Of a stretch of 64,000 bases of DNA, positions 5,144 through 57,124 are shown piece by piece. Each line of letters opens with the position of its first letter. Position 1 is the stretch's first letter. The position numbers and the translations under genes were made by a program. The stretch lies in NCBI GenBank assembly GCA_946186375.1, contig CAMHMZ010000009.1, positions 1,419 through 65,418 of the forward strand, written 5' to 3'. A model generated the notes under the pieces. It saw nothing but the letters and a program-made list of their open reading frames with translations, had not been told where the DNA came from and did no database searches. The DNA is from an uncultured Clostridia bacterium (GTDB taxonomy: Bacteria > Bacillota > Clostridia > Oscillospirales > Oscillospiraceae).

Positions 5144-5157
5144 AAGCAAAACCTCCT

Positions 5158-5897: not shown

Positions 5898-5926
5898 GTC
5901 TCCTTTTTATGATGTACCAAAAGTCT

Positions 5927-6757: not shown

Positions 6758-6794
6758 ATCCGTAAAGCGTGCAAACGCCTGCCTCTGCAGGTGC

Positions 6795-9055: not shown

Positions 9056-9076
9056 GCTCAGGCTGTAATACCGATA

Positions 9077-9104
9077 CGGCCCGCATCCTTCGGGATGCGG
9101 GCCG
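9077..9104 (+). terminator. intercistronic stem-loop after the TAXI receptor gene (possible partial terminator or mRNA stabiliser)
   Basis: CGGCCCGCATCC-TTCG-GGATGCGGGCCG with a weak T-tract. Confidence 0.35.
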
Positions 9105-9158
9105 CGTCGCCATTCTTGTCAGCCCGCCGCGCCCGGCGGAGAAAGGAGAGATCAGCAT

Positions 9159-11108: not shown

Positions 11109-11227
<119 letters not shown>

Positions 11228-11265
11228 AAAAAAGCCCGCCGGTTTTTCAACCGGCGGGCTTTTTC
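11228..11265. terminator. bidirectional intrinsic terminator
   Basis: AAAAAAGCCCGCCGG-TTTTTCAA-CCGGCGGGCTTTTT between convergent genes. Confidence 0.8.
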
Positions 11266-11267
11266 TG

Positions 11268-26754: not shown

Positions 26755-26798
26755 GCAAAGTTTGTCTTCGGTTGGCTTGAATCATCTCAAAACATTTG

Positions 26799-26838
26799 AA
26801 ACAGCAGGCATTCTACGGAGTGCCTGCTGTTTACTTTC
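26799..26838 (+). terminator. intrinsic terminator of the guaA-like gene (part of direct repeat copy 1)
   Basis: AACAGCAGGCATTC-TACG-GAGTGCCTGCTGTTTACTTTC. Confidence 0.7.
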
Positions 26839-26903
26839 ATCTGTTATGATAGCGGAATGATAGCAAAACTGGTAAGAACTACAGCAAAACGCCGCTTTTC
26901 CCC

Positions 26904-26931
26904 TTGTGCTTTTGCCTTTTTGTCGTATAAT
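26904..26931 (+). promoter_or_regulatory. promoter of the yhcG-mcrB-mcrC-like cassette (inside direct repeat copy 1)
   Basis: TTGTGC-16-TATAAT, about 30 nt upstream of the ATG at 26964. Confidence 0.5.
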
Positions 26932-26963
26932 AACGGTAATCAAAAGAAGGTGAGGTCTTGCGG

Positions 26964-27992
26964 ATGACAGATCAAATTCGGCCCATCAATCAGGATATCA
27001 AGCTTGTCATTCATGAGATCGGCGATCTGCTGGCCGCTGCCCGGAGCAATGTTGCCCGGCAGGTGAATAACGAGCTGCTGAGCACCTATTGGAATATCGG
27101 GCGTATTATTGCCGAATATGAGCAGACGGTGCCGGAGCGGGCTGACTACGGTAAACAGACGCTCAAGGAGCTGTCAAAGGCGCTGACCGCTGAATTTGGA
27201 AAGGGCTTTTCTGTCTCCAACATTCAGTTCATGCGGCGGTTTTATCAGACCTACCAAATTCAACAGACAGCGTCTGTTAAATTGAGTTGGTCGCATTACT
27301 GCGAACTTCTTTCCATTTCGGACCCGGACAAGCGCAGCTTTTATGAGAAGGAAGCGGTCAATTCCAACTGGTCTGTGCGCGAGCTCAAGCGTCAGATTGA
27401 GAGCTCCCTGTTCGAGCGTCTGCTGCTATCCCGTGGGGATGCAAACAAGGAGCAGGTGCTGGCGCTGGCGGAGAAAGGAATTGAGATCGCTGAACCGTCT
27501 GATCTCATTCGCGACCCGTATGTGTTTGAATTCCTCGGCATCCCGGAGGACAAGCCCATGCTGGAGAGCGACCTGGAACGGGCGCTGGTGCAGCAGATTG
27601 AAAAGTTCCTGCTGGAGCTGGGGCGGGGCTTCATGTTTGTCGGCACACAGCAAAGGGTGACGATCAATAACACCCACTACTATGTGGACATGGTGTTCTA
27701 CAACAAGATCCTCCGCGCCTATGTTCTGATCGAACTGAAGACCACAAAACTGACGCCGGAAGCCGCGGGGCAGATCAATCTATATCTGAATTACTATGCC
27801 TCTGAGGTCAACGATCCGGATGACAATCCTCCGATCGGGATCATCCTGTGCACCGAGAAGGACAGCATCACGGCGGAGTACGCTTTGGGCGGTCTGTCAA
27901 ACAACGTCTTTGCCTCGCGTTATGTGCTGGTTATGCCCAACAAGGAACAGTTGATCGCCCAGGTAGAAGCGGTTTTGAAGAAGCGGAAATGA
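26964..27992 (+). CDS. YhcG-like PDDEXK nuclease (DUF1016 family)
   Basis: ATG 26964 behind AGGTGAGG. N-terminal DUF1016-type helical region (..STYWNIGRIIAEYEQ..). C-terminal nuclease core YVDMVFYN..YVLIELKTTKL. Low GC. Confidence 0.75.
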   Translation: MTDQIRPINQDIKLVIHEIGDLLAAARSNVARQVNNELLSTYWNIGRIIAEYEQTVPERADYGKQTLKELSKALTAEFGKGFSVSNIQFMRRFYQTYQIQQTASVKLSWSHYCELLSISDPDKRSFYEKEAVNSNWSVRELKRQIESSLFERLLLSRGDANKEQVLALAEKGIEIAEPSDLIRDPYVFEFLGIPEDKPMLESDLERALVQQIEKFLLELGRGFMFVGTQQRVTINNTHYYVDMVFYNKILRAYVLIELKTTKLTPEAAGQINLYLNYYASEVNDPDDNPPIGIILCTEKDSITAEYALGGLSNNVFASRYVLVMPNKEQLIAQVEAVLKKRK

Positions 27993-28013
27993 AACAGGAA
28001 AGAGGGAATACAG

Positions 28014-29339
28014 ATGCTGAAAACAGATATCCGTCTCAATACAATTCTCTACGGTCCTCCGGGAACGGGAAAGACTTACAACACTGTTAATTACGCAGTC
28101 GCAATTTGTGAGGGGAAAACCCTCGAAGAAGTTGAAGGTGAGGATTATTCGGACGTTTTTATGCGCTATATTGACTTTAAGAAAAAGGGCAGAATTGTCT
28201 TTACCACATTTCATCAATCCTATGGGTATGAAGAATTTATTGAGGGAATTAAACCCATCACTGATAAGAGCGGCAATATCTCATATGAAATAAAGAACGG
28301 CGTCTTCAGGGATTTCTGTAAAAATGCAGAGAAATTGCTTCAAACCAGCGGCCAGTCGATATTTGACGATATATGGAAAAAGCTTGTAGCTGCTGCCAAA
28401 GAAAATGACGGTAAATATCTTTTCAAACGGAGAACTGGTACAACAATACAGGCCAAATACATTGAGCCAGACAGGTTCAGGGTAGAGTGGAATGGTAATA
28501 CCAATACTCATAATGACTTGACAAAGTCGGCAATTATAAATCAGTGGATGAATCCAAATCCAAAACGTGAGCAGCTAACAGGCGGGGCCCGGTGGTTATT
28601 TGATGCAAGACGGGCAGTGTTGGACGAAATGAAAGAATACGGCTTGCCGACGTTCCAGACGGAAGATGCCTGTGTTTTTATTATTGATGAAATCAATAGA
28701 GGAAATATTTCTAAGATTTTCGGTGAATTGATTACATTGATAGAGGAAGAAAAGCGGGAAGGAAGCGTAGAAGAACTGACGGCAGTGCTTCCGTATTCCA
28801 AAACTGAATTTTCAGTTCCAAGGAATGTCTACATTCTTGGGACAATGAATACTGCTGATCGGTCTATTGCAATTATGGATACAGCTCTCCGCAGAAGATT
28901 TGACTTCGTTGAGATACAGCCTGATCCCGATGTTCTGAGCGGAGTCAAAATTGTTGCGGATGGGATTGAACTGGATGTTGCCAAAATGCTAAAAACCATC
29001 AATTCAAGAATTGAAGTTCTGTATGACAGAGATCATACTATCGGACATGCCTTTTTCATGCCTCTCAGGCAAGACAATTCTATTGATGCATTAGGGTCTG
29101 TTTTCCGTAAGAAAGTGATACCGCTTCTTCAAGAGTATTTTTATGAGGACTACGGAAAAATACAGATGATTCTGGGAGATAATGATAAATCTGATAATAA
29201 GATCAAATTCATAGTAGAAGAGCGTATAGACGGAAGCGTTTTTAGGGGAAAAGTTGATATAAGTGACTTCCCTCCACGGTATTGGATAAACGAGGAGGCG
29301 TTTAACAGCATCGAAAGTTATCAACAGATTATCGGGTAA
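28014..29339 (+). CDS. McrB-like AAA+ (GTPase-type) restriction subunit, atypical architecture
   Basis: Walker A GPPGTGKT at aa 14-21, FHQSYGYEEFIEGIKP, Walker B VFIIDEINRGN at aa 221-231, GTMNTADRSIAIMDTALRRRF. Starts 21 nt after the yhcG-like stop. Confidence 0.85.
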   Translation: MLKTDIRLNTILYGPPGTGKTYNTVNYAVAICEGKTLEEVEGEDYSDVFMRYIDFKKKGRIVFTTFHQSYGYEEFIEGIKPITDKSGNISYEIKNGVFRDFCKNAEKLLQTSGQSIFDDIWKKLVAAAKENDGKYLFKRRTGTTIQAKYIEPDRFRVEWNGNTNTHNDLTKSAIINQWMNPNPKREQLTGGARWLFDARRAVLDEMKEYGLPTFQTEDACVFIIDEINRGNISKIFGELITLIEEEKREGSVEELTAVLPYSKTEFSVPRNVYILGTMNTADRSIAIMDTALRRRFDFVEIQPDPDVLSGVKIVADGIELDVAKMLKTINSRIEVLYDRDHTIGHAFFMPLRQDNSIDALGSVFRKKVIPLLQEYFYEDYGKIQMILGDNDKSDNKIKFIVEERIDGSVFRGKVDISDFPPRYWINEEAFNSIESYQQIIG

Positions 29340-29345
29340 GAGAGC

Positions 29346-30671
29346 ATGGCCAGGAAAACGCTTACAATTCAGGAATACGAAACGATCACTTCCAACGTCC
29401 GCTTTGAAAAGGAGGAGGGCTATCGATATCTTGATCAGGAACACCTTCAGAAACTGGAACAGTTTATCCTCGAATATTCTGAAACTGAGGGTGATACTGA
29501 CGTTCTACAGTTTCTAAAGCCGGGGTTCCATCGGAATGTGGGAAAAGTAATATCTGTCAGCAACTATGTTGGAGTGGTACAGCTCCAGGACGGGCTCTCT
29601 GTTGAAATTCTGCCCAAGGTTCTTATGGGTGAGGATGACAACGCGTATTCCCAAACAAAGCAGGTTTTTTTGCGTATGTTAAAGCACATGCGTGAATATG
29701 ATGGCCGGACTCTGAACTTTGCCAATTTAAAAACAAGCAACACAGATTTGTATGAAATCTTTATCAGTATGTTTGTCAGGGAAGCAAGAGAGCTTGCAAA
29801 GAGAGGGTTAAAATCAGCCTATCTTGAAGAGGAAGATAATTTGTCCTTCTTCAAAGGGAAACTTTCAGTCAACGAGCATATCAAGAAAAACCTGGCACAT
29901 AATGAACGCTTTTATGTTCGTTATGATGAATACAAAGTAAATCGTCCGGAAAACAGGCTGATTAAAGCAACATTGCTTAAACTGCTGTCTTTGAGTGGCA
30001 CGTTCGAGATGCAGAAAGAAATACGGCAAGTTCTCGCAATGTATGACATGGTGGAGCCTTCGCACCATTATCAACGAGATTTTGCACAAGTTTCAATTGA
30101 TAGAAGCACCAGACAATATGAACTGCTAATAGATTGGGCAAAGGTGTTTCTGTTTAATAAAAGCTTTTCAACATTTACTGGCACTACTACAGCAAGAGCG
30201 CTGTTGTTTCCAATGGAGAAAGTGTTTGAGGCATATGTTGCTAAAGAAATGAAAAAACATCTTACACCGGAAGGCTGTATAGTTAGTGTTCAGGAGCAAA
30301 GCTACTGGCTTTTTGACGAGCCTACAAAAAAGTTTGCCCTTCGCCCGGATATTGTAGTGACAATGGAGAATGGGCGAAAGATCATCATGGATACCAAATG
30401 GAAGCGGCTGTCACCTGACAAGAACAATTATGGAATCTCACAAGCTGATTTGTATCAGATGTATGCTTATGCTAAGAAGTATGGAACTGACAATGATACG
30501 CCGGCCGTTTGGCTTTTGTATCCATTAAGCCCAGTAACTGTAAACCTCCAGAATACTGTTTTGAAAAGCAATGATGGTGTGACTGTGCATGTGTTTTTTG
30601 TGGACTGTTCTGAATTAAAAAACGGCTTCCGAATTGTTGACCTCTGTAATAGTATTCGAGAGAACCGTTAG
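29346..30671 (+). CDS. McrC-like nuclease subunit
   Basis: Starts 6 nt after the McrB-like stop. N-terminal ..NYVGVVQLQDGLSVEILPKV.. block. C-terminal PD-(D/E)xK-like RPDIVV....IMDTKWKRL. Confidence 0.7.
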   Translation: MARKTLTIQEYETITSNVRFEKEEGYRYLDQEHLQKLEQFILEYSETEGDTDVLQFLKPGFHRNVGKVISVSNYVGVVQLQDGLSVEILPKVLMGEDDNAYSQTKQVFLRMLKHMREYDGRTLNFANLKTSNTDLYEIFISMFVREARELAKRGLKSAYLEEEDNLSFFKGKLSVNEHIKKNLAHNERFYVRYDEYKVNRPENRLIKATLLKLLSLSGTFEMQKEIRQVLAMYDMVEPSHHYQRDFAQVSIDRSTRQYELLIDWAKVFLFNKSFSTFTGTTTARALLFPMEKVFEAYVAKEMKKHLTPEGCIVSVQEQSYWLFDEPTKKFALRPDIVVTMENGRKIIMDTKWKRLSPDKNNYGISQADLYQMYAYAKKYGTDNDTPAVWLLYPLSPVTVNLQNTVLKSNDGVTVHVFFVDCSELKNGFRIVDLCNSIRENR

Positions 30672-31063
30672 AATACGGCCAATTCTGTCTTCAATATGGT
30701 CTTTGCTGTGAGAAAGCTCGATAAAATCCATAACGCCGAGCTAGGCAGGCACATGCAGCCAATCGCTACGGTAGAACTATTCAACTTCAACGGTGTCGGT
30801 GTTCGATCACATTCGGTATATTTACCTCTTTATCGACCAGACCAATGCGAACTGCTTCAACAACTCACACCTGTGATAGCGTCGTTGATAGCTTTTTGAT
30901 AGCAAAAGTCCGTAGACCCCATGGGTTGAGGATAATGGGAATCAAACGGAGTCACGTCGAGACAAATCCCCTAAACAAAAGCAGTTAAAACCGGGATTTA
31001 CTTGGCGAGTGGGAATAAATCCACATTTGGATTCGCTTGGTTCAGATTCTCTCAAAGCACTTG

Positions 31064-31103
31064 AAACAGCAGGCATTCTACGGAGTGCCTGCTGTTTACT
31101 TTC
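31064..31103 (+). terminator. duplicate of the guaA-like terminator (direct repeat copy 2)
   Basis: Sequence identical to 26799..26838. Confidence 0.6.
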
Positions 31104-31168
31104 ATCTGTTATGATAGCAGGATGATAGCAAAACTGGTAAGAACTATAGTAAAACACCGCTTATTCCC

Positions 31169-31196
31169 TTGTGTTTTTGGCGTTTTATCGTATAAT
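31169..31196 (+). promoter_or_regulatory. duplicated promoter (direct repeat copy 2) with no ORF immediately downstream
   Basis: TTGTGT-16-TATAAT, followed by two terminator hairpins before the sigma-factor gene. Confidence 0.45.
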
Positions 31197-31279
31197 AATA
31201 CAGCGTGGTCTGATAAGATCAATCGTGCTTGTCCCGAGGCCCGTCTCTCTGTTTTCAGGGGGACGGGCTTTTCCTTATA

Positions 31280-33263: not shown

Positions 33264-36200
33264 ATGACAGGGAAAAAGCTTTTCGCCCTGCTGCTGGCGC
33301 TGCTGCTGTGCCTCAGTCTGGTTCCTCTCAGCGCGCTCGCGGAGGGCGAGGTGTACACCGTGACCCTGGACCCCGGCGAGGGAACGGGCGAGCCCGTCAG
33401 CTACCGCTCCGACGAGGGCACGATCGCGGACGATTGGCGCAGCTCCGGCAATTTACAGTTCTTTTACGAAGAAGACGGGGGCCTGGGCTTCCATCTGGGC
33501 AATAACTACTGCCCGGACGGCTTCACCGCCCCGGCGGGACAGGTGTTCAACGGCTGGAGCCCGACGAGCGGCGTAATCAAGCTGGGCAGAACGGAAACCA
33601 CCTTCACCGCCCAGTGGAGAGACGCGGGCTCCGCCGCCATCAGCTTCAGCCCCGACTCCATCACGCTGAGCGCAAATGATTTTGACGCAAACGGCTACGC
33701 AGCACTGAGCTTCGACCTGACGATCGATTTCGGCCCGAACGCAACGTCTGACGCTAATGTTTCAGTTTCGTTTGACGGTGGCGTAGTCTTCAAGGGCAGC
33801 TCACGGATCGCCTGGAAGGTCTCCCAGGCGGATGAGGACACGCAGTCAGATTCGATTAATCAACAGTTCTTTGCCGATTCGGGTTATCGATCCTTCCCCT
33901 TCAAGCTGTATATCGACCCCGCCGCTCTCGCCGCCGCGGAGCCGGGAAGCTATACGGCAACGCCGAATTGTTATCTGTCATGGGATTTTATCGGCGGCAG
34001 CCCCGCCCCCGGGGACGTAGAAATCCCCCTGACGCTGGTGGTGCCGGAGCCCAGTTACCCCATCACGCTGACCTACGACAATGACGGCGGCGCGGTCGGC
34101 GTGGATAAGGAAGAGGCCGCAGCGGGCGAAACGGTCGCCGTCAAGGTCGATCCCTACGACGGTTATACGCTGGGCTCCGTCGCCGTGACCGACGCGGACG
34201 GCAGCCCCGTGACCGTCACGCTCACCGATGCGGACAACGGGATCTATACCTTTGTCATGCCCGCCTCGGCGGCGACCGTGGCCGTGGATTTCCAGGTGAT
34301 CACGGTAGACGCGGTGGTGGACTTCGGCACGGGCCACGAGACCTTCGTCCAGAACCACTTCGGCGGGACCTACGCGGTGGACGGCGCCCGCATCACCGTC
34401 CCCATCCCAAGAGGGGAGAGCCACACGGTGCTGCTCGCCTGGGAAACCCTGGAGGGCAAGCTGCTGGAGCTTCTCTGGGACAACCCCCTCGACAACGGCG
34501 AGAGGCTCTATCAGTATCTGGGCCGCAAGAGCATGGTCGCATACGGCAGCGAGGATGCGCTGAGCGAGGACAAGCGCCTCGCCCGCGACGAGGCCTTTGT
34601 GCCCGGCACCGTGTTCACCGCGCTGTGGGAGCAGCCCGTGCGCAACGCCACCATCACGGTCACCCCGCCCGCCTGCGGCACCGAGGTGCATTATGAGTAT
34701 AAGACCGGCATCTACGTCTGGGCCGTCCCACAGCCGCAGCTCAGCGTCAGCAGCCCCTGCACCTTCCAGGATTATCAGCTCTTCTACAACAGCTGGAGTC
34801 TGAGTGACGAAGAGCACCATTATGGGGTCGGCGACTCCGTCGTCATGACCGGCGGCAACTCCTATACTGCCTACGGCTACCTGGACGCCGGCTTCGGCTA
34901 TCGCATCGATCCGAAGCTCCTCACGGTGGAGGTCGTCGGCGGGACGCTGCTGAGCTTCGGCAACGACTGGACCCGCTTTGAGATCTCCGTGCCCGTGGAG
35001 CATGATATCCCCGACGACGCGGTGCGCGTGGAGCCCACCTGCGCCGAGGAAGGCACGCTGTCCTACCACTGCGACGGCTGCGGCCAGGACGTGGTCGATC
35101 CCATCGAGGCCCTGGGCCACGACTGGGGCGCTCCGACCTACACCTGGGCTGACGACAACAGCACGGTAACTGCCACGCGGGTCTGCTCTCGCGATACGGT
35201 GAATCATGTGGAGACCGAGACGGTGAATGCCGTCGGCGAGGTCACCAAGGCCGCGACCTGCGAGGAGAAGGGCGAGACCACTTATACGGCGACCTTCGAG
35301 AACGAAGCCTTTTCCGCCCAGACCAAGACCGTTGAGGATGTCAAGGCCCTGGGCCACGACTGGGGCGAGTGGACCGAGACGAAAGCCCCCACGGAGACCG
35401 AGGAGGGCGAGGAGACACGTGTCTGCGCCCATGATCCGAGTCACGTGGAGACCCGCGCGATCGCCAAGCTGGAGCCCGCGGCCACGCCGACGCCCACGCC
35501 TACGGCTACCCCGGCTCCCACGGCCACGCCCAAGCCCACGGCCACGCCCGCGCCTACGGCCACGCCCGCGCCTACGGCCACGCCCGCGCCTACGGCCACG
35601 CCCGCACCCACGGCCACGCCCGCACCCACGCCGGAGCCCTCGCCCGAACCCACGCCCGTGCCCACGCCGGAGCCCTCGCCCGAACCCACGCCCGAACCCA
35701 CGCCCGAACCCACGCCCGTGCCCACTCCGGAACCCACGCCCGTACCCACGCCCGTGCCCACGCCCGTGCCCACGCCCGAACCGGAGATCTATACGGTCAC
35801 CGTGAAGGACGACGGGCACGGCACGGCTGAGGCGACCCCGGCCTCCGGCCCCAGCGGCACGAAGGTCGCCCTTACGGCCGAGCCCGACGAGGGCTACAGC
35901 TTCAAGGACTGGGAGGTCGTCTCCGGCGGCGTGACAGTGAAGAATGACAGCTTCACCATCGGTGACGAGGACGTTGAGCTCCTGGCGCTCTTCGAGGCGG
36001 ATTACCGCGTCGTCAGCGGCGCCAACGGCAGCTGGACCAAAAACAGCGGCAAGGACTACACGCTCACTGTCAAGCGCGATGTGGACGACGAGAGCTGCTT
36101 TGCGCACTTTGTCGGCGTCGAGCTCGACGGAGCCGCCCTCTCCGCCGCGGACTACACGGCGAAGGCGGGCAGCACGGTCGTGACGCTCAAGGCCGCCGCG

Positions 36201-36420: not shown

Positions 36421-36835
36421 TCGTTTTCAGTTTTCAGAACGCTAAACGGTTGTTTAGCGAGAAGTTTGAAATGATGTCGTAGGGGCGGCTATCAGCCGCC
36501 CGCGGACACGGTACTGGTTTGACGGGCGGCTGATAGCCGCCCCTACGGGAAACGTGACCGCCTTTTGTAGGGGCCGGCGTCCCCGACGGCCCGGCAGAAG
36601 CACCTCAAATATATACAAAAATCCCCGGCGAATTCGTAGAAAAGCACGTATTCGCCGGGGATTTATTCACCTTTTCAGTTTGTGCCGCGCGGGGCGATGA
36701 AGGCATCGCCCCCTACGACGTGGACGTCAATTTCCTCGTTCTATCCTTCGTTTTCCCTCATTCCGAATTCCGAACTCCGAATTCCGAATTCGTCGCTGAA
36801 CTCGAATTTATCGCTCTTCTGAAAACTGAAAACTG
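36421..36835 (+). repeat. modular intergenic element, copy R3 (modules H1+H2+H3)
   Basis: The most complete copy (R6, 436 bp, is slightly longer). Fills the whole gap between the convergent surface-protein and MFS genes. Confidence 0.85.
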
Positions 36836-38239
36836 TCAACGGTAGGTGTCGGCGGTGATGGCGTCGAGATCGACGTTTTTCGTCTCCTTCACCTTCGTCA
36901 GCAGCACGAGCAGCGACAGGGCCATGAAGGGCACGCAGATCAGCAAAAACAGCAGATCCATCGGCAGGAAGTTCTGGCAGACGATGAAGAGGATCTGGCC
37001 GATGAACATGCCCGCGCCGATCATGACCGAGATCGTCCCCATGACCGAGGAGCGCATGCCGGAGGGCGAGGACTCGGCGGGCATGGTGAGGATGATCGTG
37101 TCGGACATCGACCAGAGGCCGCCGATCGAGCAGCCGTAGGCGATTCCCGCGGCGAGCGGCCCCCAGCCCAGACGGCAGGCGAGCACGAAGAGCGTCAGCC
37201 CGACGAGGGCGAGGCTGCCCAGCAGCACGCAGGCCTTCTTGCGCCCGAGCTTATCGGAGAAGAAGCCGCTGGCGATGGTGACGAGGCCGTTGAAGAAGGG
37301 ATAGACGATGAGCGCCGTGCCGACGAGCTCCGTGCTCATGGCGCCCTCCAGCACCGTCGCGTAATACGAGGTGTAGAAGGTCGTGGCGAAGAAGAGGAAA
37401 CCCGCGATCAAAATCCAGCGCAGCTGGGGTGTGGCGAAGATGAAGCGCAGGGCGCGGAACACGCCGCCCTCCTCAGCCGCGCCGCTTTTGGCGTCGGCCT
37501 CCCGGCGCGCGCGGCGCTCCTCCGGCGTCAGTGAGAGCCAGGCGCGGCGCTGATCGACGAAGACCGGCGTCTCGCGCACGAGGAAGAAGGACAAGCCCCC
37601 GATCACGAGCGCGACGGCGACCGGGATGAGATACACGAGCCGCCAGCTGCCGGGCTCGTCCTCGCGCAGGAAGAGCCGCGAGAGAACGCCGATGAGCGAG
37701 ACGCTGATGAGGGCGATCCCCTTGGCGATGAAGCTGTAGGTCGCGCGCTTGGCCTTCGGCGCCGTCTCCATGATATAGAGCACCTGCATGTCGTTCGGCG
37801 TGAAAAACAGCATGGCGAGCATGCCGAGGATGTACTGCAGCACGCTCCGGCTCGTCATGACGATCAGCATGCCGACGCCCATGCCGAGCGTGTTGATCAT
37901 CAGAAAGAGCCTGCGGCCGTATTTGTCCGACAGGGCCTTGTAGAAGGGCGTGATGATCAGAAACAGGTTCGAGGCCACCTGCCAGGGCGCGACGGTGTTG
38001 ATGGCGCCGGTGTATCCCGGGTCGCTGACGCTCCGGGACGTGATGTGGAAGAGATCGAAGAGCACATAGGGCTGCATGGCCGCGTTGACGTTCGAGGTGA
38101 TCTCGTCCACAACGTAGATGACCGTCAGCACGATCATCACGAACAGGAGATAGCGCGCGGTTTTGGGCCGCGCCGCCTCGCGGTCGAGCCGCTCGAGCTC
38201 GCGCCGCTCCTTCGCCGGATCGACGGGTCTGTCTTTCAT
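36836..38239 (-). CDS. MFS transporter
   Basis: 467 aa with about 12 predicted hydrophobic helices and a GRRLFLMINT-type loop motif. AAGGGGGA RBS. Confidence 0.85.
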   Translation of the reverse strand: MKDRPVDPAKERRELERLDREAARPKTARYLLFVMIVLTVIYVVDEITSNVNAAMQPYVLFDLFHITSRSVSDPGYTGAINTVAPWQVASNLFLIITPFYKALSDKYGRRLFLMINTLGMGVGMLIVMTSRSVLQYILGMLAMLFFTPNDMQVLYIMETAPKAKRATYSFIAKGIALISVSLIGVLSRLFLREDEPGSWRLVYLIPVAVALVIGGLSFFLVRETPVFVDQRRAWLSLTPEERRARREADAKSGAAEEGGVFRALRFIFATPQLRWILIAGFLFFATTFYTSYYATVLEGAMSTELVGTALIVYPFFNGLVTIASGFFSDKLGRKKACVLLGSLALVGLTLFVLACRLGWGPLAAGIAYGCSIGGLWSMSDTIILTMPAESSPSGMRSSVMGTISVMIGAGMFIGQILFIVCQNFLPMDLLFLLICVPFMALSLLVLLTKVKETKNVDLDAITADTYR

Positions 38240-44306: not shown

Positions 44307-45791
44307 ATGAACCGGATCGGATTTGACAACGACCAGTATGTAAAGCTGCAATCCCAGAAGATCCGCGACCGCATCGCACAGTTCGGCGGCAAGCTGTATC
44401 TGGAGTTCGGCGGCAAGCTTTTTGACGATTACCACGCCTCCCGCGTGCTGCCGGGCTTTGAGCCGGACAGCAAGGTGAAGATGCTGCTGGAGATGAAGGA
44501 CGAGGCGGAGATCCTGATCGCCATCTCGGCCGACGACATCGAGCGCAGCAAGCGCCGCGGGGATCTCGGCATCACCTACGACGAGGACACGCTCCGTCTG
44601 ATCGACGCCTTCCGCGGCATCGGGCTGTACATTGGCAGCGTCGTCATTACGCACTACCGCGGCCAGCCCGCCGCCGACAAGTTCATCAAGCGCCTCGAGA
44701 CGCTGGGCATCCGCGTCTACCGGCACTTCATCATCCCGGACTATCCCTCAAACGTCCCGCTCATCGTCTCGGACGAGGGCTTCGGCAAGAACGAATACGT
44801 CGAGACCGAGCGCAGTCTCGTCGTCGTCACCGCGCCCGGCCCCGGCAGCGGCAAGATGGCCACCTGTCTGAGCCAGCTCTACCACGAGCACAAGCGCGGC
44901 GTCCGCGCCGGCTACGCCAAGTTCGAGACCTTCCCGATCTGGAACCTGCCGCTCAAGCACCCGGTGAACCTCGCCTACGAGGCCGCCACCGCGGATCTGG
45001 ACGACGTGAACATGATCGACCCCTTCCATCTGGAGGCCTACGGCGTCACGACCGTCAACTACAACCGCGACGTGGAGATCTTCCCCGTGCTGGAGGCGAT
45101 GTTCCGCCGGATCTACGGCGAGAGCCCCTACAAGAGCCCCACGGACATGGGCGTCAACATGGCGGGCTTCTGCATCGTGGACGACGAGGCCTGCCGCGAG
45201 GCCTCCTGCCAGGAGATCCTGCGCCGCTACTACACGGCCGCCTGCGCCGCGCGCCAGGGGCTGACGGAACAGGCGGAGGTGCGGCGGATCGAGCTGCTGA
45301 TGAATTCGCTCGGCCTGAGCGCCGCGAACCGCCCGGTGGTCGGCGCCGCACTCACGCGCGCCGAGGAGACCGGGGCCCCGGCCATGGCGCTGGAGCTGCC
45401 CGACGGCACGATCGTCACCGGCAAGACGAGCTCGCTGCTCGGCGCCGCCTCGGCCTGCCTCCTGAACTCCCTCAAGCATCTGGCCGGGATCGACCACAAG
45501 CTGCCGCTGATCGCGCCGGGCATCATCCAGCCGATCCAGCATCTGAAGGTCGAGCATCTCGGCAACCACAACCCGCGCCTGCACACCGACGAGCTGCTGA
45601 TCGCCCTGTCGATCTGCGCGGTCACCAACCCCATGGCGGAGCTGGCCATCGACCAGCTCGACAAGCTGCGCGGCTGCGAGGCGCACTCCTCCGTCATTCT
45701 CTCCCACGTGGACGAGGAGCTCTTCAAAAAGCTCGGCGTCAACATCAGCTTCGAGCCGAAATACCAGGCCAAGAAGCTCTTCCATAAGTAA
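44307..45791 (+). CDS. DUF1846 (UPF0371) family protein
   Basis: 494 aa. N-terminal GFDNDQYVKLQSQKIRDRI..GGKLYLEFGGKLFDDYHASRVLPGF is the conserved UPF0371 start. Confidence 0.85.
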   Translation: MNRIGFDNDQYVKLQSQKIRDRIAQFGGKLYLEFGGKLFDDYHASRVLPGFEPDSKVKMLLEMKDEAEILIAISADDIERSKRRGDLGITYDEDTLRLIDAFRGIGLYIGSVVITHYRGQPAADKFIKRLETLGIRVYRHFIIPDYPSNVPLIVSDEGFGKNEYVETERSLVVVTAPGPGSGKMATCLSQLYHEHKRGVRAGYAKFETFPIWNLPLKHPVNLAYEAATADLDDVNMIDPFHLEAYGVTTVNYNRDVEIFPVLEAMFRRIYGESPYKSPTDMGVNMAGFCIVDDEACREASCQEILRRYYTAACAARQGLTEQAEVRRIELLMNSLGLSAANRPVVGAALTRAEETGAPAMALELPDGTIVTGKTSSLLGAASACLLNSLKHLAGIDHKLPLIAPGIIQPIQHLKVEHLGNHNPRLHTDELLIALSICAVTNPMAELAIDQLDKLRGCEAHSSVILSHVDEELFKKLGVNISFEPKYQAKKLFHK

Positions 45792-46110
45792 GTTTTCAGA
45801 AGTCAGTTTTCAGTTTTCAGAAAGGGAAGCGGCAGTTTATCGCTGCGTTTGAAAGGATGCCATAGGGGCCGGCGTCCCCGACGGCCCGGCAGAAGCACCT
45901 CAAATATATACAAAAATCCCCGGCGAATTCGTAGGTCAGTACGTTTTCACCGGGGATTTGTTCATTTTTCGGTTTATACCGCGCGGGGCGATGAGGGCAT
46001 CGCCCCCTACGATGGGAACGTCAGTTTCCTCGTTTTATCCTTCGTTTCCCTTCGTCCCGAACTCCGCATTTCGAATTTGTCGTCAAACTGAAAACTGACT
46101 TCTGAAAACT
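45792..46110 (+). repeat. modular intergenic element, copy R4 (modules H2+H3)
   Basis: Begins immediately after the DUF1846 gene stop. The ends AGTTTTCAGAAGTCAGTTTTCAG and CTGAAAACTGACTTCTGAAAACT are reverse complements. Confidence 0.85.
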
Positions 46111-46270
46111 ATCGCAATCGGTCGCTGACCGGACTTTCGCAGTCCTCGAAGATGAAATCGTCGATGTCTTTTTCCATGTTCCGACCCTCCGTTTCTCAAC
46201 ATACTCCCATCCTATGCGCCGCGCAGCGGGAATATGCCGCAAATCTTCCGGGATTTTTGTATCTTTTCTC

Positions 46271-48103: not shown

Positions 48104-48916
48104 ATGCCCAGAGGAAGAGTCAGGGCTGTATTGTTTATAATCGTATTTCTGCTGGTCGCCGCCGTGATCGCCACGGTGCTGACCGGCCTGGACAAGGTCT
48201 CCCCGAAGCCCGCCGAGACGGCCGCGCCGCCGGTCGAGCCCGCGCCGGAGACCGAGATCCCGGTCGAGCCCACGTCCGCGCCTGCCGCGCCGACGCCCGA
48301 GCCCGCGCCGACCCCCACCCCGGCTCCGACGCCGGCGCCCACACCCGCACCGACTCCGGTCCCGACGCCGACGCCCACGCCCACCCCGGCGCCTACTCCG
48401 GCGCCTACGCCCACGCCCGTCGAGGAGACCGAGATCCCCATCGAGCCCGAACCGACCCCTACCCCGACGGCCACGCCGGAGCCCACGCCGACCCCTGAGA
48501 CGACGCCCGAGCCCGTTCCGGTCGGAAGTGTGATCGCCTCCGGCAGCTTCCGCTCCGACACCGGCGTGCCGCTGAACCTGGTCGTCAGCTGGACGGCGAC
48601 CTCCGCCGGCGACGGGAAGGCCACAGTCACTGTCTCCGTCAGCTGTGAGTCCGCGAGCCTCACGCTCACCGCGCTCAGCCGCAGCGTCAACATCAGCGTC
48701 GGCGATCAGTACGCCAGCATCGACCAGCCGTCCGTCAACATTGAACAGAACACCACGACGGTCACGCCCTTCGGCTCGAAGACCTTCTCAGTCGACCTGC
48801 CCGAAAGCGGCAGCGTCACCCTCCCCGTGCAGGTGGAGTGGCACTACCGCGGCAGCTACAGCGGCACGCCGCTGGAAGTGATCGAGTGCGGCGACAACAT
48901 CACCCTCAGCCGCTGA
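48104..48916 (+). CDS. membrane-anchored protein with Pro/Thr-rich linker and unknown C-terminal domain
   Basis: ORF 48074..48916. ATG 48104 is best spaced from GGGAAAGGA. N-terminal TM helix, about 105-aa PT/PE linker, about 130-aa beta-rich C-terminus. Confidence 0.6.
   Translation: MPRGRVRAVLFIIVFLLVAAVIATVLTGLDKVSPKPAETAAPPVEPAPETEIPVEPTSAPAAPTPEPAPTPTPAPTPAPTPAPTPVPTPTPTPTPAPTPAPTPTPVEETEIPIEPEPTPTPTATPEPTPTPETTPEPVPVGSVIASGSFRSDTGVPLNLVVSWTATSAGDGKATVTVSVSCESASLTLTALSRSVNISVGDQYASIDQPSVNIEQNTTTVTPFGSKTFSVDLPESGSVTLPVQVEWHYRGSYSGTPLEVIECGDNITLSR
48200..48522 (+). repeat. in-frame low-complexity Pro/Thr/Glu-coding repeats
   Basis: ACGCCCGAGCCC / ACCCCGGCGCC type units encoding PTPAPTPEP. 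Similar in composition to 35476..35785. Confidence 0.7.
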
Positions 48917-48922
48917 TACGGA

Positions 48923-48960
48923 CCGACCCGGGGATGCAGCCATCCCCGGGTCGGTTTTCA
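48923..48960 (+). terminator. intrinsic terminator merging into repeat copy R5
   Basis: CCGACCCGGGGAT-GCAGCC-ATCCCCGGGTCGG then TTTTCAGTTTTC. Confidence 0.7.
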
Positions 48961-49232
48961 GTTTTCAGGAGAACGACTAATTGGAGTTTATCGCTGAGTT
49001 TGAAATGATGTCGTAGGGGCGGCCCTAAAGGACTAGCTTCGCGTCGCTATCAGCCGCCCGCGGACATGGTACAGAGTTGGCGGGCGGCTGGTAGCCGCCC
49101 CTACGGCGTGGACGTCAATTTCCTCGTTCTATCCCTCGTTTTCCCTGTATTCCGAATTCCGCATTCCGGATTCCGAATTCCTCGCTAAATACCCGTTTAT
49201 CTCTGAAAGCTGAAAACTGACTTCTGAAAACT
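48953..49232 (+). repeat. modular intergenic element, copy R5 (module H1 with a 22-bp insertion)
   Basis: Near-identical to the reverse complement of R1, except that CTAAAGGACTAGCTTCGCGTCG is inserted in the left arm of hairpin H1. Confidence 0.85.
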
Positions 49233-51608: not shown

Positions 51609-52253
51609 ATGAGGCCGATGCGCACACAGGAACAGGTCAACGAGATCGTACGGCTGCTGCTGGAGGAGTACCCCGAGGCCAGCTGCACCCTGGACTATAA
51701 CAAGGCCTATGAGCTGCTGTTTTCGGTGCGGCTTGCGGCCCAATGCACGGACGAGCGGGTCAACCAGATCACACCGGCCCTCTTTGCCCGCTTCCCGACG
51801 CTGGAGGCCTTCGCGGAGGCCGACGTCGCGGAGGTGGAGCGCTATGTGCACGCCTGCGGCTTTTTCCGGGCCAAGGCGCGCGACATCGTCGCCTGCGCGC
51901 AGGTGCTGCTGGAAAAGCACGGCGGCCGCGTGCCGGACACGATGGAGGAGCTGACGGCGCTGCCCGGCGTGGGCCGCAAGACCGCCAACCTCATCCTCGG
52001 CGACGTGTACCGCGTGCCGGGCTCCACCGTGGTGGACACGCACTGCATCCGCCTGTCCAACCGCCTCGGCCTGGTGGACGGGCTGAAGGAGCCGGAGAAG
52101 ATCGAGCGCGAGCTGCGCAAAATCCTCCCGCCGGAGCGCTCCTCCGATTTCTGCCACGCGATCGTTCTGCACGGCCGCGCCGTCTGCGACGCCCGCAAGC
52201 CAAACTGCGAGGCCTGCTGCCTGCGCCATCTGTGCCAGTTCTACTCGAATTGA
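51609..52253 (+). CDS. nth: endonuclease III
   Basis: HhH-GPD (..LTALPGVGRKTANLIL..) and a C-terminal 4Fe-4S cluster CX6CX2CX5C. Alternative start ATG 51618. Confidence 0.9.
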   Translation: MRPMRTQEQVNEIVRLLLEEYPEASCTLDYNKAYELLFSVRLAAQCTDERVNQITPALFARFPTLEAFAEADVAEVERYVHACGFFRAKARDIVACAQVLLEKHGGRVPDTMEELTALPGVGRKTANLILGDVYRVPGSTVVDTHCIRLSNRLGLVDGLKEPEKIERELRKILPPERSSDFCHAIVLHGRAVCDARKPNCEACCLRHLCQFYSN

Positions 52254-52254: not shown

Positions 52255-52292
52255 CGTTTCTAAAAACTAAAAACTTAAAACTTAAAACTAAA
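52255..52292 (+). repeat. degenerate heptamer tract related to the element termini
   Basis: CTAAAAACTAAAAACTTAAAACTTAAAACTAAA between nth and the M32 gene. It has 7-bp periodicity and resembles the CTGAAAACTGAAAACT ends. Confidence 0.4.
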
Positions 52293-52311
52293 TCCGCAGG
52301 AGGTAACCGAT

Positions 52312-53940: not shown

Positions 53941-54741
53941 ATGAATAAAACTCTCAAACGCGTTTTGACCCTGGCCCTCGCGCTCATCATGCTGCTGAGC
54001 CTGGCCGCCACCGCCTTTGCCGATGACGGCGACGTCTATCCCTTTTCTGGCGAGGTGACCGTATACCGCTCCCTTAAGGAGGGAAAAAGCTACTTTACGA
54101 TCCCGCTCGCCGTCGGCGTCCAGAATTTCACGCTCAAACGCTCGACCGTCAAGCTGAGTGCCAACACCTGCGGCGCGGTGCCCTACCGCTTCAACAAGAG
54201 CCTCGGCAAAGAGACCCGCACCGATTATGACCTCTTTTTTAAGGACTGGAACATTACCACGACCGATACCAGCTGCGTCTACACCTTCACCTTTACAGCG
54301 GAGACAGCCGGCACCTGCACGATCAACTACAAGATCGGCGACGCCCGCTTTACCATCAAGGTCAAGGTGCTCGACTACGTCAATCCCTTGAAATCTCTGA
54401 GCTTCACCAACTTCAACAGCGGCAAAAACTATGCGTCCAAATTTAAAAGCGGCAACCACAGCAATGACCTCGTCTTTAAGAGCAACGTGAAGAGCTCCTC
54501 TCTGAAGCTCGCGGCCAAGGACGGCTGGAAGATCCTCTCCGCGGAGATCCTGGATTGCAACACGCTCAACAGGGTGACCTTCTCCTCGGCGCGGAAAGGC
54601 CTCGCCTCCGTCTCCGTCCGCTGGGGGACCTTCAAGATCACGCACACCTATAGTATCAAGGTCACGCTCTACAACACGAAAAACGGCGGCACGCTGAATC
54701 TGGACTTCGATTTCGCCGGGAAAAACTCGGAATTGAACTGA
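53941..54741 (+). CDS. secreted protein of unknown function, tandem paralog 1
   Basis: AAAGGAGA RBS. Signal peptide MNKTLKRVLTLALALIMLLSLAATAFA/DD. Shares the core ..YKIG...F.IKVKVLDYVNPLK.. with the two downstream genes. Confidence 0.7.
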   Translation: MNKTLKRVLTLALALIMLLSLAATAFADDGDVYPFSGEVTVYRSLKEGKSYFTIPLAVGVQNFTLKRSTVKLSANTCGAVPYRFNKSLGKETRTDYDLFFKDWNITTTDTSCVYTFTFTAETAGTCTINYKIGDARFTIKVKVLDYVNPLKSLSFTNFNSGKNYASKFKSGNHSNDLVFKSNVKSSSLKLAAKDGWKILSAEILDCNTLNRVTFSSARKGLASVSVRWGTFKITHTYSIKVTLYNTKNGGTLNLDFDFAGKNSELN

Positions 54742-54794
54742 CCTTCTTCGACCGGAGACGGTGGAAAAGCTTGCCTGCCCCTGCCTGTTTTTTC

Positions 54795-54823
54795 TTGACA
54801 GCTTCAGCTCTTAAGATTATAAT
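54795..54823 (+). promoter_or_regulatory. consensus promoter of tandem paralog 2
   Basis: TTGACA-17-TATAAT exactly. The 5-prime UTR hairpin GGTCGGCGCC-GGAA-GGCGCCGACC lies at 54837..54860. Confidence 0.6.
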
Positions 54824-54900
54824 TTAAATGCCAAAAGGTCGGCGCCGGAAGGCGCCGACCATCTTTATCCGGAAACATCATGAGGAAAAGGAGAATGAAC

Positions 54901-55698
54901 ATGAATAAAACCATGAAACGCGTTCTGACCCTGGCGCTGGCGATGCTGATGCTGCTGAGCCTGACCGTCACCGCCTTCGCCGACGACGGGGAGGTTTATC
55001 CCGCAACCGGCACCGTGACCGTCTACCGCACGGACAAGAGCGGCGAGAGCTATGTCACCGTTACGCTGGCCAGCGGCAGCAAGAACTTCACCATCAAGCG
55101 CTCCAGCGTCACCGTCAAGCCCGGCACCACGGGAGCAGCGCTTGTCGAATTCAACAAGCACCGCGACATCGTCGATGGCGAATATGACTACGGCATGGGC
55201 CAGTGGGACAAGGGCGGCTGGTACGACTGCAATTACACCGCCACGCTCCGGGTCTCGGCCGCCGGCACCGCCACCGTCAAATACAAGATCGGCACGACGA
55301 GCTACACCCTCAAGGTCAAGGTCCTCGACTACGTCAACCCCGTCAAGACCATCACGCTCACCGGCGTCAACAGCGGCAAGAGCTTCGCCGCCCGCACGAA
55401 CCCCTCGACGTATGCCACCAAGTCCCTTGCGCTGAAGAAAACCACCAAGAACGCCGTGCTGAAGGTCACGGCCAAGAGCGGCTGGAAGATCAACTCCGTC
55501 GGCATTCAGGACCAGACCACCGGCGCTGTCCGCATCTTCGCCAACTACAGCGGCGTCAGCTCCGCCACGCTCAAATGGGGCACGCTGAACAAGGCTCACA
55601 TCTATTCGATCGAGCTTGAGCTCGTGAACACGAAGAACGGTGCCAGCATGACCGTCAGTTACAGCGTCATCGGTTCCGCCGCCGAAGCGCTTTTCTGA
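54901..55698 (+). CDS. secreted protein of unknown function, tandem paralog 2
   Basis: ORF 54880..55698. ATG 54901 (MNKTMKRV..) chosen by RBS spacing and by analogy to paralogs 1 and 3. Same signal peptide and the KYKIGTTSYTLKVKVLDYVNPVKTITLTGVNSGKSFAART core. Confidence 0.7.
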   Translation: MNKTMKRVLTLALAMLMLLSLTVTAFADDGEVYPATGTVTVYRTDKSGESYVTVTLASGSKNFTIKRSSVTVKPGTTGAALVEFNKHRDIVDGEYDYGMGQWDKGGWYDCNYTATLRVSAAGTATVKYKIGTTSYTLKVKVLDYVNPVKTITLTGVNSGKSFAARTNPSTYATKSLALKKTTKNAVLKVTAKSGWKINSVGIQDQTTGAVRIFANYSGVSSATLKWGTLNKAHIYSIELELVNTKNGASMTVSYSVIGSAAEALF

Positions 55699-55778
55699 GC
55701 GAAGCGGCGCGTTCCCCTCATCGTCAATGAGAGCGCCGGCTCTCTTAAAAATACAGGATGAAAGGATAGGACCTGCTC

Positions 55779-56594
55779 ATGAACAAAACTCTGAAACGCG
55801 TTACAACCCTCGCGCTCGCGCTCGTGATGCTCCTGAGCCTGAGCGTCGCCGCCTTCGCCGACGAAGGCGAGATCTACCCTGTCTCCGGCACGATCACCCG
55901 CTATATGTCCTTCGATCCCGAAAACTCCGGCCTCACTTCCCACACCTGCTGGCTGACCATCGCCTCCGCCGACAAGAACATTACCATCAAGCGCTCCAGC
56001 GTGAAGGTCACGGCCGGCACCTGTGAGGCCAAGCTCTACGCCTTTGAAAAGTCTTTCTACGGCTACGACGAGCAGTACGACTTTTCGGGTGAGAAGACCT
56101 GGGACGAAAGCTACTCCTACCGCAGTTATGATTATACGATCGGCGTCCGCGTCAGCAAGCCCGGCACTTTCACGGTCAAGTACAAGATCGGCACCACCTC
56201 CTACAGCTTCAAGGTGAAGGTCCTCAAGTACGTCAACCCCGTCAAGACCATCACGCTCAGCGGTGTCAACGGCGGCAAGAGCTTCGCGGCCCGGACGAAG
56301 TATGCGAACAGCAACTTCGTAGATCGCCTCTCGCTCCCGGCCAAGAAGACCAACACCTCTCTGAAGGTCACCGCCAAGGACGGTTGGAAGCTCACCTCCA
56401 TCACGCTCCGGGATTCCACGAAAAACACCTCCCGCAGCTACACCTGCACCAGCAGCCCCGTCAGCAGCTTCACGCTCAAGTGCGGCACGCTCTACGCCAA
56501 CCGCAACTATCAGGTATCTTTGAACCTGATCAACACCAAGAACAACGCCTCGCAGACCATCTACTACTACATCGACGGCGCCAAGGCCGGCTAA
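55779..56594 (+). CDS. secreted protein of unknown function, tandem paralog 3
   Basis: MNKTLKRVTTLALALVMLLSLSVAAFA/DE. KYKIGTTSYSFKVKVLKYVNPVKTITLSGVNGGKSFAART core. Followed by a strong terminator. Confidence 0.7.
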   Translation: MNKTLKRVTTLALALVMLLSLSVAAFADEGEIYPVSGTITRYMSFDPENSGLTSHTCWLTIASADKNITIKRSSVKVTAGTCEAKLYAFEKSFYGYDEQYDFSGEKTWDESYSYRSYDYTIGVRVSKPGTFTVKYKIGTTSYSFKVKVLKYVNPVKTITLSGVNGGKSFAARTKYANSNFVDRLSLPAKKTNTSLKVTAKDGWKLTSITLRDSTKNTSRSYTCTSSPVSSFTLKCGTLYANRNYQVSLNLINTKNNASQTIYYYIDGAKAG

Positions 56595-56628
56595 GCCACT
56601 CCGCATACGGAAAACGAGCATACAAACA

Positions 56629-56665
56629 GAACCAGCCCTTCGGGAGAGGGGCTGGTTCTTTTTTT
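56629..56665 (+). terminator. intrinsic terminator of the tandem paralog array
   Basis: GAACCAGCCC-TTCGGGAGAG-GGGCTGGTTC then TTTTTTT. Confidence 0.8.
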
Positions 56666-56688: not shown

Positions 56689-57124
56689 GAGTTTTCAGTT
56701 TTAAGTTTTTAGTTCTTAGGAAGATAAACGGCAGTTTATCGCTGAGTTTATAATGAAGCCGTAGGGGCGGCTATCAGCCGCCCGCGGACACGGTGCAGGC
56801 TCGGCGGACGAGCAATGCTCGTCCCTACGGGGGGCGCAGCCTCTTTTCGTAGGGGCCGGCGTCCTCTGACGGCCCGGCAGAAAAAGCCAAAAACATACGG
56901 AAATCCCCGGCGAATTCGTGGAATAGTACGCTTTCGCCGGGGATTTGTTCACGTATTTAGATCGTACCGCGCGGGCCGCCGAGGGCGTCGGCCCCTACGA
57001 CATGGACGACAATTCCCGCGCAAAACCTTCCTTTTCCCATCATTCCGAATTCCGAATTCCGCATTCCAAATTCGCCGCTAAACTCCAATTTGTCGCTCGC
57101 CTGAAAACTGACTTCTGAAAACTC
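56689..57124 (+). repeat. modular intergenic element, copy R6 (H1 rearranged, plus H2 and H3)
   Basis: Degenerate left end (GTTTTCAGTTTTAAGTTTTTAG). The right arm of H1 is replaced by the new hairpin GGACGAGCAATGCTCGTCC. Canonical right end. Confidence 0.8.

Follow-up and report, generated by a model that had tools for sequence, protein, structure and literature searches.

Modular intergenic repeats with GTAG-tagged hairpins and heptamer arrays in a gut Oscillospiraceae-like bacterium

Our analysis of a 64-kb stretch of DNA from an uncultured Clostridia bacterium (GenBank assembly GCA_946186375.1, contig CAMHMZ010000009.1, positions 1,419 to 65,418; hereafter the window) confirmed a family of dispersed, structured, modular, intergenic repeats in this gut Oscillospiraceae-like organism. 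The repeats are non-coding and 120-435 bp long, and the window holds six of them, R1 to R6. With roughly even confidence, we read the family as a lineage-restricted, non-coding mosaic repeat of the kind known from repetitive extragenic palindromic (REP) sequences and bacterial interspersed mosaic elements (BIMEs), and not as a classical MITE (a miniature transposable element with inverted repeats), with copies made from one intergenic site to another. The evidence comes from the hairpins at the centre of the elements, from near-identical copies at unrelated sites, from the position of the elements at gene ends and from their turnover between related species.

The copies lie at 3034-3304 (R1, minus strand), 11109-11227 (R2), 36421-36835 (R3), 45791-46110 (R4), 48953-49232 (R5) and 56689-57124 (R6), R2 to R6 on the plus strand. 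Each was read directly and all were placed in one alignment (A1), in which they can be aligned over their full length, end to end. The coordinates in the original prediction were correct, and its description of a dispersed, structured, modular, intergenic family was supported by the alignment, the predicted folds and the placement of the six copies, all of which are intergenic. Comparison of the window with 100 shuffled versions gave 8 observed matches against 0.01 expected for TTTTCAG-N7-TTTTCAG, 27 against 0.58 for the ATTCCGA dimer ATTCCGAATTCCGA with up to 2 mismatches, and 13 against 2.3 for GTAGGGRC; in each of the three motif tests no shuffle equalled the observed count. Every period-7 tandem array of at least 3.6 units that Tandem Repeats Finder reported in the window belongs either to an element or to one solo array at 52257-52295. 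The window has a G+C content of 62%, and its roughly 50 genes are ordinary chromosomal ones according to Pfam (glmS, tldD/pmbA, a TRAP transporter, guaA, ABC transporters, peptidases); the closest named homologues of their products are in Oscillospiraceae and in metagenome-assembled genomes of Clostridia. Copy counts for the source genome refer to the window. The source is probably itself a metagenome-assembled contig, and proteins identical to P0001 and P0121 are encoded on one contig, which would suit an assembly artefact or chance low-complexity sequence. This explanation is refuted by the shuffles, by the gene order around R1 and R2, which was confirmed in an independent assembly of a relative (contig L161), and by related copies in independent metagenomes (L012, L013 and L202-L208), and we regard its probability as negligible.

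Each full copy is a long imperfect palindrome, in which outer AGTTTTC / CTGAAAA heptamer arrays and inner arms (GATAAACGG..GTTTATCGCTGAGTTTGAA on the left; the ATTCCGA array followed by ..CGCTAAACTCC..TTTGTCGCT on the right) enclose a centre made of GTAG-tagged stem-loops, single or as an inverted doublet, and one terminator-like hairpin. The terminal inverted arms are 23-50 nt long and 76-100% complementary. What had been called long terminal inverted repeats are indeed inverted, and because the inversion continues about 50 nt inward the palindrome takes in the whole element; the outermost parts turned out to be tandem heptamer arrays whose number of units varies from copy to copy. A right terminal repeat had been assigned to all copies; R2 has none and ends at a terminator hairpin (11228-11266).

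In the full-length R3, the left heptamer array of GTTTTCA units (36423-36439) is followed by the left inner arm CGCTAAACGG..GTTTAGCGAGAAGTTTGAAATGATGT (36440-36477), which is partly complementary to the right inner arm and has homologues in contigs L161, L022 and L164. Then comes hairpin H1 (36478-36547), an inverted doublet of GTAG-GGGCGGCTATCAGCCGCCC-G that resembles a REP doublet forming hairpins (REPIN) and recurs at 3163-3232 in R1 and at 56760-56829 in R6. The next hairpin, H0 (36567-36595), was absent from the earlier list; it is an imperfect GTAG-tagged hairpin, GTAG-GGGCCGGCGTCCCCGACGGCCC, also found (GTAGGGGCCGGCGTCCCCGACGGCCC) in R4 (45862-45890) and in R6 (from 56849). H2 (36619-36664) is untagged, with a 14-bp stem, AATCCCCGGCGAAT / ATTCGCCGGGGATT, a 16-nt loop and a T-rich tail after it on the minus strand; in contig L013 the centre of the copy is a true terminator hairpin made by a related stem. 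H3, GTAG-GGGGCGATGCCTTCATCGCCCC-GCGCG, lies on the minus strand (36686-36716) and is found as doublets in the relative L022. The element continues with a C-rich, G-poor spacer GACGTCAATTTCCTCGTTCTATCCTTCGTTTTCCC (36723-36757) and an ATTCCGA array of 4.6 units (36760-36791), and closes with the right inner arm TCGTCGCTGAACTCGAATTTATCGCT and the right heptamer array (36792-36835, with the CTGAAAA units at 36817-36835). As predicted originally, R3 and R6 carry H1, H2 and H3, R1 and R5 carry H1, R4 carries H2 and H3 (and, as said, H0), and R2 carries none of them. The elements are predicted to fold far more stably as RNA than shuffled sequence (R3, -198.9 kcal/mol, z = -11.7; R5, -119.1 kcal/mol, z = -7.2), and in both predicted folds the outer heptamer arrays close the structure.

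H1, H0 and H3 share one form, GTAG + GGGC..stem..loop..stem..GCCC. A GTAG tag joined to a stem-loop is the definition of a GTAG-tagged REP, and an inverted pair of these makes a REPIN-like doublet (PMC3733652; PMC6006769). Scanning viral contigs with the H1 unit, we obtained 18 loci with dozens of hairpins, arranged singly, as inverted pairs and as tandem clusters, in which the tag and the stem base are constant and the upper stems and loops differ. Since stems of different length cannot be aligned column by column, we compared GGG[GC] sites that follow GTAG with those that follow other 4-mers, a comparison independent of choosing paired hairpins. A perfect stem of at least 7 bp was present at 50% of the tagged sites in the window against 1.0% after other 4-mers, and at 77% against 1.6% in the viral loci. 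The tag is one-sided in 84 of about 105 hairpins, and the many different stems are all self-complementary; at homologous positions in R1, L161 and L022 there are three different stems, each fully paired. Inverted doublets or clusters were found among the H1 copies, as doublets in L161 and L022 and as clusters in L025. In the window, all 11 hairpin-associated GTAGGGRC sites are intergenic and inside elements. Relative to transcription the hairpins are oriented without bias (27 vs 23), which favours an element acting at the DNA level and argues against a sense-specific RNA role. The interchangeable GC-rich hairpins of the original prediction are real, and most of them belong to a type of GTAG-tagged stem-loop that is widespread, as REPs are built, and frequent in other high-GC contigs classed as viral.

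The clusters of L025, a contig of 7.7 kb with 67% G+C, include five tandem direct copies of a 46-51 nt unit bearing an H1-type hairpin (6894-7107) and clusters in which four or more types of GTAG hairpin are mixed, with AATGCCT/AGGCATT heptamer arrays on their flanks (1960-2980); AATGCCT heptamers flank REP clusters in L026 as well. A CRISPR-like reading of the tandem units was ruled out because the "spacers" are themselves repeated. Further recurrent intergenic hairpin families stand beside the GTAG hairpins in relatives and viral contigs (L164 1-150; L024 10935-11344; L031; L039; L014 11470-11790), two examples being GGATTGCCNCG..CTCGCAATGAC and GTCATCCTGAGCGCAGCGAAGGATCC..GGATCCTTCAC..GGATGAC.

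R1 and R5 are 95-97% identical over 157 + 74 nt and have unrelated flanking genes, which means that DNA was copied between the two sites. R3 and R6 are 74-79% identical, so the family comprises old members and at least one recent copying event. The variant module contents were confirmed, and the mix-and-match layout that had been proposed for them is explained more simply by deletions than by free shuffling. In the alignment, R4 corresponds to an R3-like copy minus the segment between two direct GTAGGGGC repeats, and its junction ATAGGGGCC fits such a deletion; R1 and R5 correspond to an R3-like copy minus the segment between two direct CCCCTACG repeats, the deletion junctions falling exactly at the direct repeats; and in R2 ..AAACG is joined to ..ACGTCAAT. 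Three deletions between short direct repeats, starting from a full-length form like R3 or R6, would fit the whole set of variants.

Inverted ends of 23-50 nt, a length of 270-435 bp, lack of coding capacity and several copies within 64 kb are features to be expected of a classical MITE, that is, a DNA transposon reduced by deletion, to whose terminal repeats a DDE transposase from another part of the genome binds, with the hairpins as passenger insertions. A MITE would also suit the lineage-specific occurrence of the period-7 arrays, none of which was found in about 175 kb of relatives at 81-91% protein identity, and the empty orthologous R2 site in L161. Reading of the flanks revealed no target-site duplication at R1, R3, R4, R5 or R6, the five copies with both ends, and Pfam identified no transposase or integrase domain in the roughly 50 window genes, so that neither the duplications nor the cognate transposase that a MITE-like element called for were seen. 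R3 had no match among plasmid and phage records (blastn). The ends consist of a tandem heptamer in variable number, not of a fixed terminus, and such arrays also occur solo in the window and in unrelated phyla, namely in Acidobacteriota, Bacteroidales and many high-GC viral contigs; the arrays are therefore not element-specific transposase-binding ends. We consider a MITE distinctly unlikely. Of the MITE/BOX-like interpretation in the original prediction, the structured modular repeat stands, and the transposon-like part does not fit the missing duplications, the window without a transposase and the ends of variable length.

Comparison with known RNA families gave no match either, as the original prediction had anticipated: Rfam returned 0 matches in the window at gathering thresholds and, in E-value mode, only generic long-hairpin (miRNA precursor) matches of at most 45 bits, the thresholds being 70-88 bits. 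In viral contigs there were 0 matches to the spacer or to the left inner arm, and the literature searched, by sequence string as well as by topic, contains no account of these hairpins or heptamers. Using a terminator scan that requires a GC-rich hairpin with a 3-8 nt loop and a U-tract (the loop of H2 has 16 nt), we found no intrinsic terminator inside R3, R5 or R6 and one weak 6-bp site in R4 (46014-46029), at a level at which shuffles average 11 sites. Ordinary terminators lie just outside three copies: R5 and R6 come after canonical terminators and R2 precedes one. No promoters were detected inside the elements beyond one weak 9/12 match.

The elements are placed tightly against gene ends, and at 6 of the 9 gene ends that face an element (a 22-codon open reading frame at 46109-46177 included) the stop codon is 0-3 nt from a heptamer array. 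R1, a short form with H1 only, abuts the glmS stop codon (3305-3307) with 0 nt between them, and tldD starts at 2995. The truncated R2 begins 2 nt past the stop codon of the DctM gene and consists of the left heptamer array, a degenerate spacer and 6.4 ATTCCGA units; it has neither hairpins nor a right array and is directly followed by its ordinary terminator hairpin. R3 lies between convergent genes, with its right array 1 nt from the stop codon (36836-36838) of a minus-strand MFS gene. In R4, the form with H0, H2 and H3 and without H1, the first heptamer overlaps the TAA stop of a DUF1846 gene. R5, the second short form with H1, begins within the U-tract of a terminator that lies upstream of it (48920-48957); the left half of its H1 is interrupted, at about 49023-49046, by an insertion of 24 nt, and its right array is 28 nt upstream of the ATG (49261) of an M28 peptidase gene. 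The full-length R6, whose H1 bears another stem, GGACGAGCAATGCTCGTCC, in its right half, is flanked by a terminator (56628-56659) on one side and, 3 nt away on the other, by the stop codon of a convergent gene (57127-57129). The solo array (52257-52295, plus strand) is a degenerate array of the right-end type with 4.7 CTAAAAA/CTTAAAA units; it begins 4 nt past the stop of the preceding gene (51609-52253), and its end is 16 nt from the ATG (52312) of a gene for an M32 carboxypeptidase, just upstream of that gene's ribosome-binding site. In R1, R5 and the solo array, a (CTGAAAA)-type array thus precedes the start of the next gene by 16-40 nt. The only window genes with such an array upstream, tldD, the M28 peptidase gene and the M32 carboxypeptidase gene, all encode peptidases; with three cases this may be coincidence or a hint of co-regulation.

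To place the heptamer arrays in a wider context, we searched for the 23-nt end of the element. Among 185,579 species genomes, a collection that does not include the source genome, there were two unrelated single matches, in Pyrinomonadaceae and Bacteroidales. A 23-mer scan of metagenomes gave 11 loci, of which only L012 and L013 are true relatives; the others, in Acidobacteriota-like and Bacteroidales contigs, are intergenic and consist of solo arrays or of short hairpins of the type (AGTTTTC)n..(CTGAAAA)n. A looser array scan of viral contigs matched at least 120 stretches, 80 of which (L041-L120) were analysed and have a median G+C of 59%, indicating an AT-rich repeat resident in GC-rich genomes. 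Among the distinct arrays in these 80 stretches, (CTGAAAA)n was followed within 30 nt by an ATG-initiated open reading frame (at least 100 aa, or at least 40 aa when running off the contig end) in 63 of 129 cases in the sense direction and in 6 in the antisense direction (p = 4e-13). The median gap between array and ATG is 11 nt, and a Shine-Dalgarno-like 4-mer was present at only 16 of the 63 array-led starts. Between some phage genes (in L063, L083 and L118) paired arrays reach exactly from the stop codon to the next ribosome-binding site; example array loci are L063 1858-1922 and 3884-3955, L097 708-6684 and L118 1157-1242. ATTCCGA arrays also stand alone, in L034 and at 33 viral loci; in viral contigs they had no association with start codons (2 and 1 of 27). 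As heptamer arrays occur in unrelated genomes, at starts and at stops, the "terminal inverted repeats" of our family are a special case of a general class of period-7 arrays at gene boundaries.

The start-codon association of sense-strand (CTGAAAA)n, the stop-hairpin-start versions between phage genes, the stop codons abutting arrays and the restriction of array-preceded window genes to peptidases all lend themselves to an explanation without mobility. In this explanation the element is a selected cis-regulatory cassette at gene boundaries, in which a stop-proximal (AGUUUUC)n pairs with a start-proximal (CUGAAAA)n and couples or insulates the translation, termination and stability of the neighbours, and copies are alike through gene conversion or convergent slippage. 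A related species, moreover, also has an element in its glmS-tldD spacer. Three of the six copies, however, lie between convergent genes with no gene start after them; the identity of R1 and R5 extends over more than 230 nt including non-array parts and needs copying, not convergence; the content of the same site differs among close relatives; and no Rfam family matched. We judge such a cassette unlikely. A broader proposal, to which we give similarly low weight, is that the period-7 arrays, above all (CUGAAAA)n, would form a previously undescribed gene-boundary class spanning phyla and filling the space from stop to start, acting as a mostly Shine-Dalgarno-independent translation leader or, together with (AGUUUUC)n, as a coupling hairpin. 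In gut Oscillospiraceae and contigs classed as viral, these arrays would have joined with GTAG-tagged REP hairpins of a Firmicute branch to give composite elements that proliferate, possibly without a REP-associated tyrosine transposase (RAYT).

Element content turns over fast between related species. L161, whose TldD is 88% identical, is syntenic with window positions 282-11108; its glmS-tldD spacer shares the left arm GTTTGAATGATCTC, has a REPIN with a different stem, and is without TTTTCAG arrays, ATTCCGA array and spacer module. The site downstream of the DctM gene, occupied by R2 in the window, has a bare terminator in L161 and the arm with a different hairpin in L164. The sequence downstream of the conserved DUF1846 gene is different in each of five related species: the window has R4, L014 other hairpin modules, L022 a terminator and a REPIN, L202 a terminator and an ATTCCGA array, and L209 only a terminator. 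The ATTCCGA array is likewise present in L202 and L208 and absent in L209. Presence/absence polymorphism at orthologous sites was thus seen at the DctM site and for the ATTCCGA array, in comparisons that are between species and not between strains. Period-7 arrays were found in the L013 species and the L202/L208 species, and copies of the scaffold in two other lineages (L013 985-1190; L202 18235-18400); in the latter the (TCGGAAT)n/(ATTCCGA)n arrays are paired, the two inner arms are present and TTTTCAG ends are missing. With the core occurring without heptamers in relatives and arrays in few lineages, the sequences compared point to an arm-and-REPIN core that is older and wider than the form in the window, and to a heptamer-clad form that is restricted by lineage.

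Some further differences among the relatives were observed inside hairpins and at a gene end. The L161, L162 and L163 contigs encode an identical TldD protein and are probably from strains of one species. Compared with L161 9843-10000, L162 370-525 shows within one REP the deletion of one stem (15 nt), and L163 1-135 has a rearrangement breakpoint at the centre of the REPIN doublet; the REPIN hairpins appear to be rearrangement hot spots. In L202 the final 9 codons of a MatE transporter gene, together with its stop, are formed by an (ATTCCGA)4 array (11557-11587), and the orthologue in L209 (1708-1760) has no array and a different end, a case in which a heptamer array has remodelled the end of a gene.

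Taking the family as a mosaic of REP/BIME kind, the GTAG hairpins would spread like REPs, moved in trans by a HUH/Y1 enzyme that works on single strands and recognises hairpins, either a RAYT or a TnpA of IS200/IS605; Clostridia are reported to be well provided with IS200/IS605 TnpA genes (PMC6006769). Spread and trimming of the scaffold would come about by recombination, gene conversion and slippage within the heptamer arrays, at the feet of the REPs and between the direct GTAGGGGC and CCCCTACG repeats, and the trimming would yield the short (R1/R5), H1-less (R4) and hairpin-less (R2) forms from a full form like R3 or R6. The element would be co-transcribed with its neighbours and may then provide a stable structure at a 3′ end or between cistrons and, where a gene follows, its right (CUGAAAA)n array may serve as an A-rich leader before the ribosome-binding site. 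Several points weigh against this reading. A HUH/Y1 gene was found neither by a crude HUH..Y motif scan of the window and L001-L040 nor by Pfam on the window genes. The alignment may fit stepwise insertion into an empty scaffold as well as deletion from a full form. R3, R4 and R6 are each flanked by convergent genes, a position that does not allow a leader role, and the RNA-level roles are ones that we infer. The copy number in the source genome comes from 64 kb. The 2013 survey (PMC3733652) did not report Firmicutes as having GTAG-tagged REPs, and membership is consequently argued from sequence features alone.

If the GTAG hairpins are true REPs, the REP/BIME phenomenon, so far studied almost entirely in Proteobacteria, reaches gut Clostridia and contigs classed as their phages, and the question arises which enzyme moves the hairpins there. 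The elements remodel gene boundaries, with stop codons abutting them and an array encoding the last MatE codons in one relative; since close species also differ in what the elements contain, these give rise to regulatory and structural variation among abundant uncultured gut bacteria. They are also a likely cause of fragmented assemblies, and the heptamer arrays are a candidate translation-initiation signal in high-GC genomes that make sparing use of Shine-Dalgarno sequences.

Other features of the window were noted as well. Beside guaA lies an island (26761-31198) with low G+C at third codon positions, which encodes a DUF1016/YhcG PDDEXK nuclease (26958-27992), an McrB-like AAA protein (28014-29339) and McrC (29346-30671); it is bracketed by 173-nt direct repeats (26761-26933 and 31026-31198, 87% identical), and we take it for a probable defence island that was acquired. 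The genes at 53941-56594 are three tandem paralogues of about 270 aa each, lacking a Pfam match and recurring every 880-960 nt, the first two having near-consensus TTGACA-17-TATAAT/TATACT promoter-like sites upstream (54795, 12/12; 53848, 11/12). Long Pro/Thr-rich tandem repeats with periods of 12 and 18 (35456-35791 and 48283-48528) form linkers in two secreted or surface proteins. The spacer upstream of glmS is only 91 nt long (5144-5234), and Rfam did not find a glmS ribozyme there, which would be unusual if this Firmicute lineage normally uses it.

Among known systems, Correia/ERIC-type MITEs and the pneumococcal BOX element are looser analogues of our family than REP/BIME and REPINs. Like the Correia elements of Neisseria, ERIC and RUP, all bacterial MITEs, the repeats are non-coding, 100-400 bp long and have inverted ends. 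Those elements are co-transcribed with their neighbours, and their long hairpins can affect mRNA processing (cited in PMC3733652). They have defined termini, and at least the Correia elements have TA target-site duplications, whereas the present repeats show no duplication and end in tandem heptamers of variable number. The resemblance to BOX (boxA-boxB(n)-boxC) is architectural only: both are modular, structured and intergenic with variable modules, and no relation in sequence was apparent, no direct comparison with BOX having been made. BOX is not known to have GTAG-tagged hairpins or heptamer arrays, and the variation in our family fits deletions between short direct repeats, not a variable number of boxB. 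Closer are the Pseudomonas REPINs, which Bertels and Rainey reportedly described in 2011 as REP doublets forming hairpins. The doublets of H1, L161 and L022 are likewise two inverted GTAG-tagged REPs about 20-25 nt apart that can fold into one long hairpin, and differ in that the doublet is embedded in a larger palindromic scaffold.

As in E. coli REP/BIME and the superfamily of GTAG-tagged REPs (Di Nocera et al., 2013; PMC3733652), the hairpins are short GC-rich imperfect palindromes with GTAG at one foot; in the window they are strictly extragenic, and they occur singly, as inverted pairs and in clusters, and form mosaics with other short motifs, and the tag is constant while the stems differ between families. 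That survey recorded GTAG repeats in Proteobacteria, Cyanobacteria, Chloroflexi and the PVC group, with Firmicutes not listed, whereas the host here is an Oscillospiraceae-like Firmicute. A REP/RAYT system would have a RAYT (TnpA-REP, HUH/Y1) gene with the same REPs on its flanks, a REPtron; no RAYT was seen here in the motif scan of the window and L001-L040 or by Pfam on the window. Unlike BIMEs, the mosaics described here have tandem heptamer arrays and inverted arms of roughly 50 nt, and, unlike REP/BIME, the hairpins are present in many copies in viral-classified contigs. The E. coli BIME and the REPIN are closer analogues of the family than the pneumococcal BOX.

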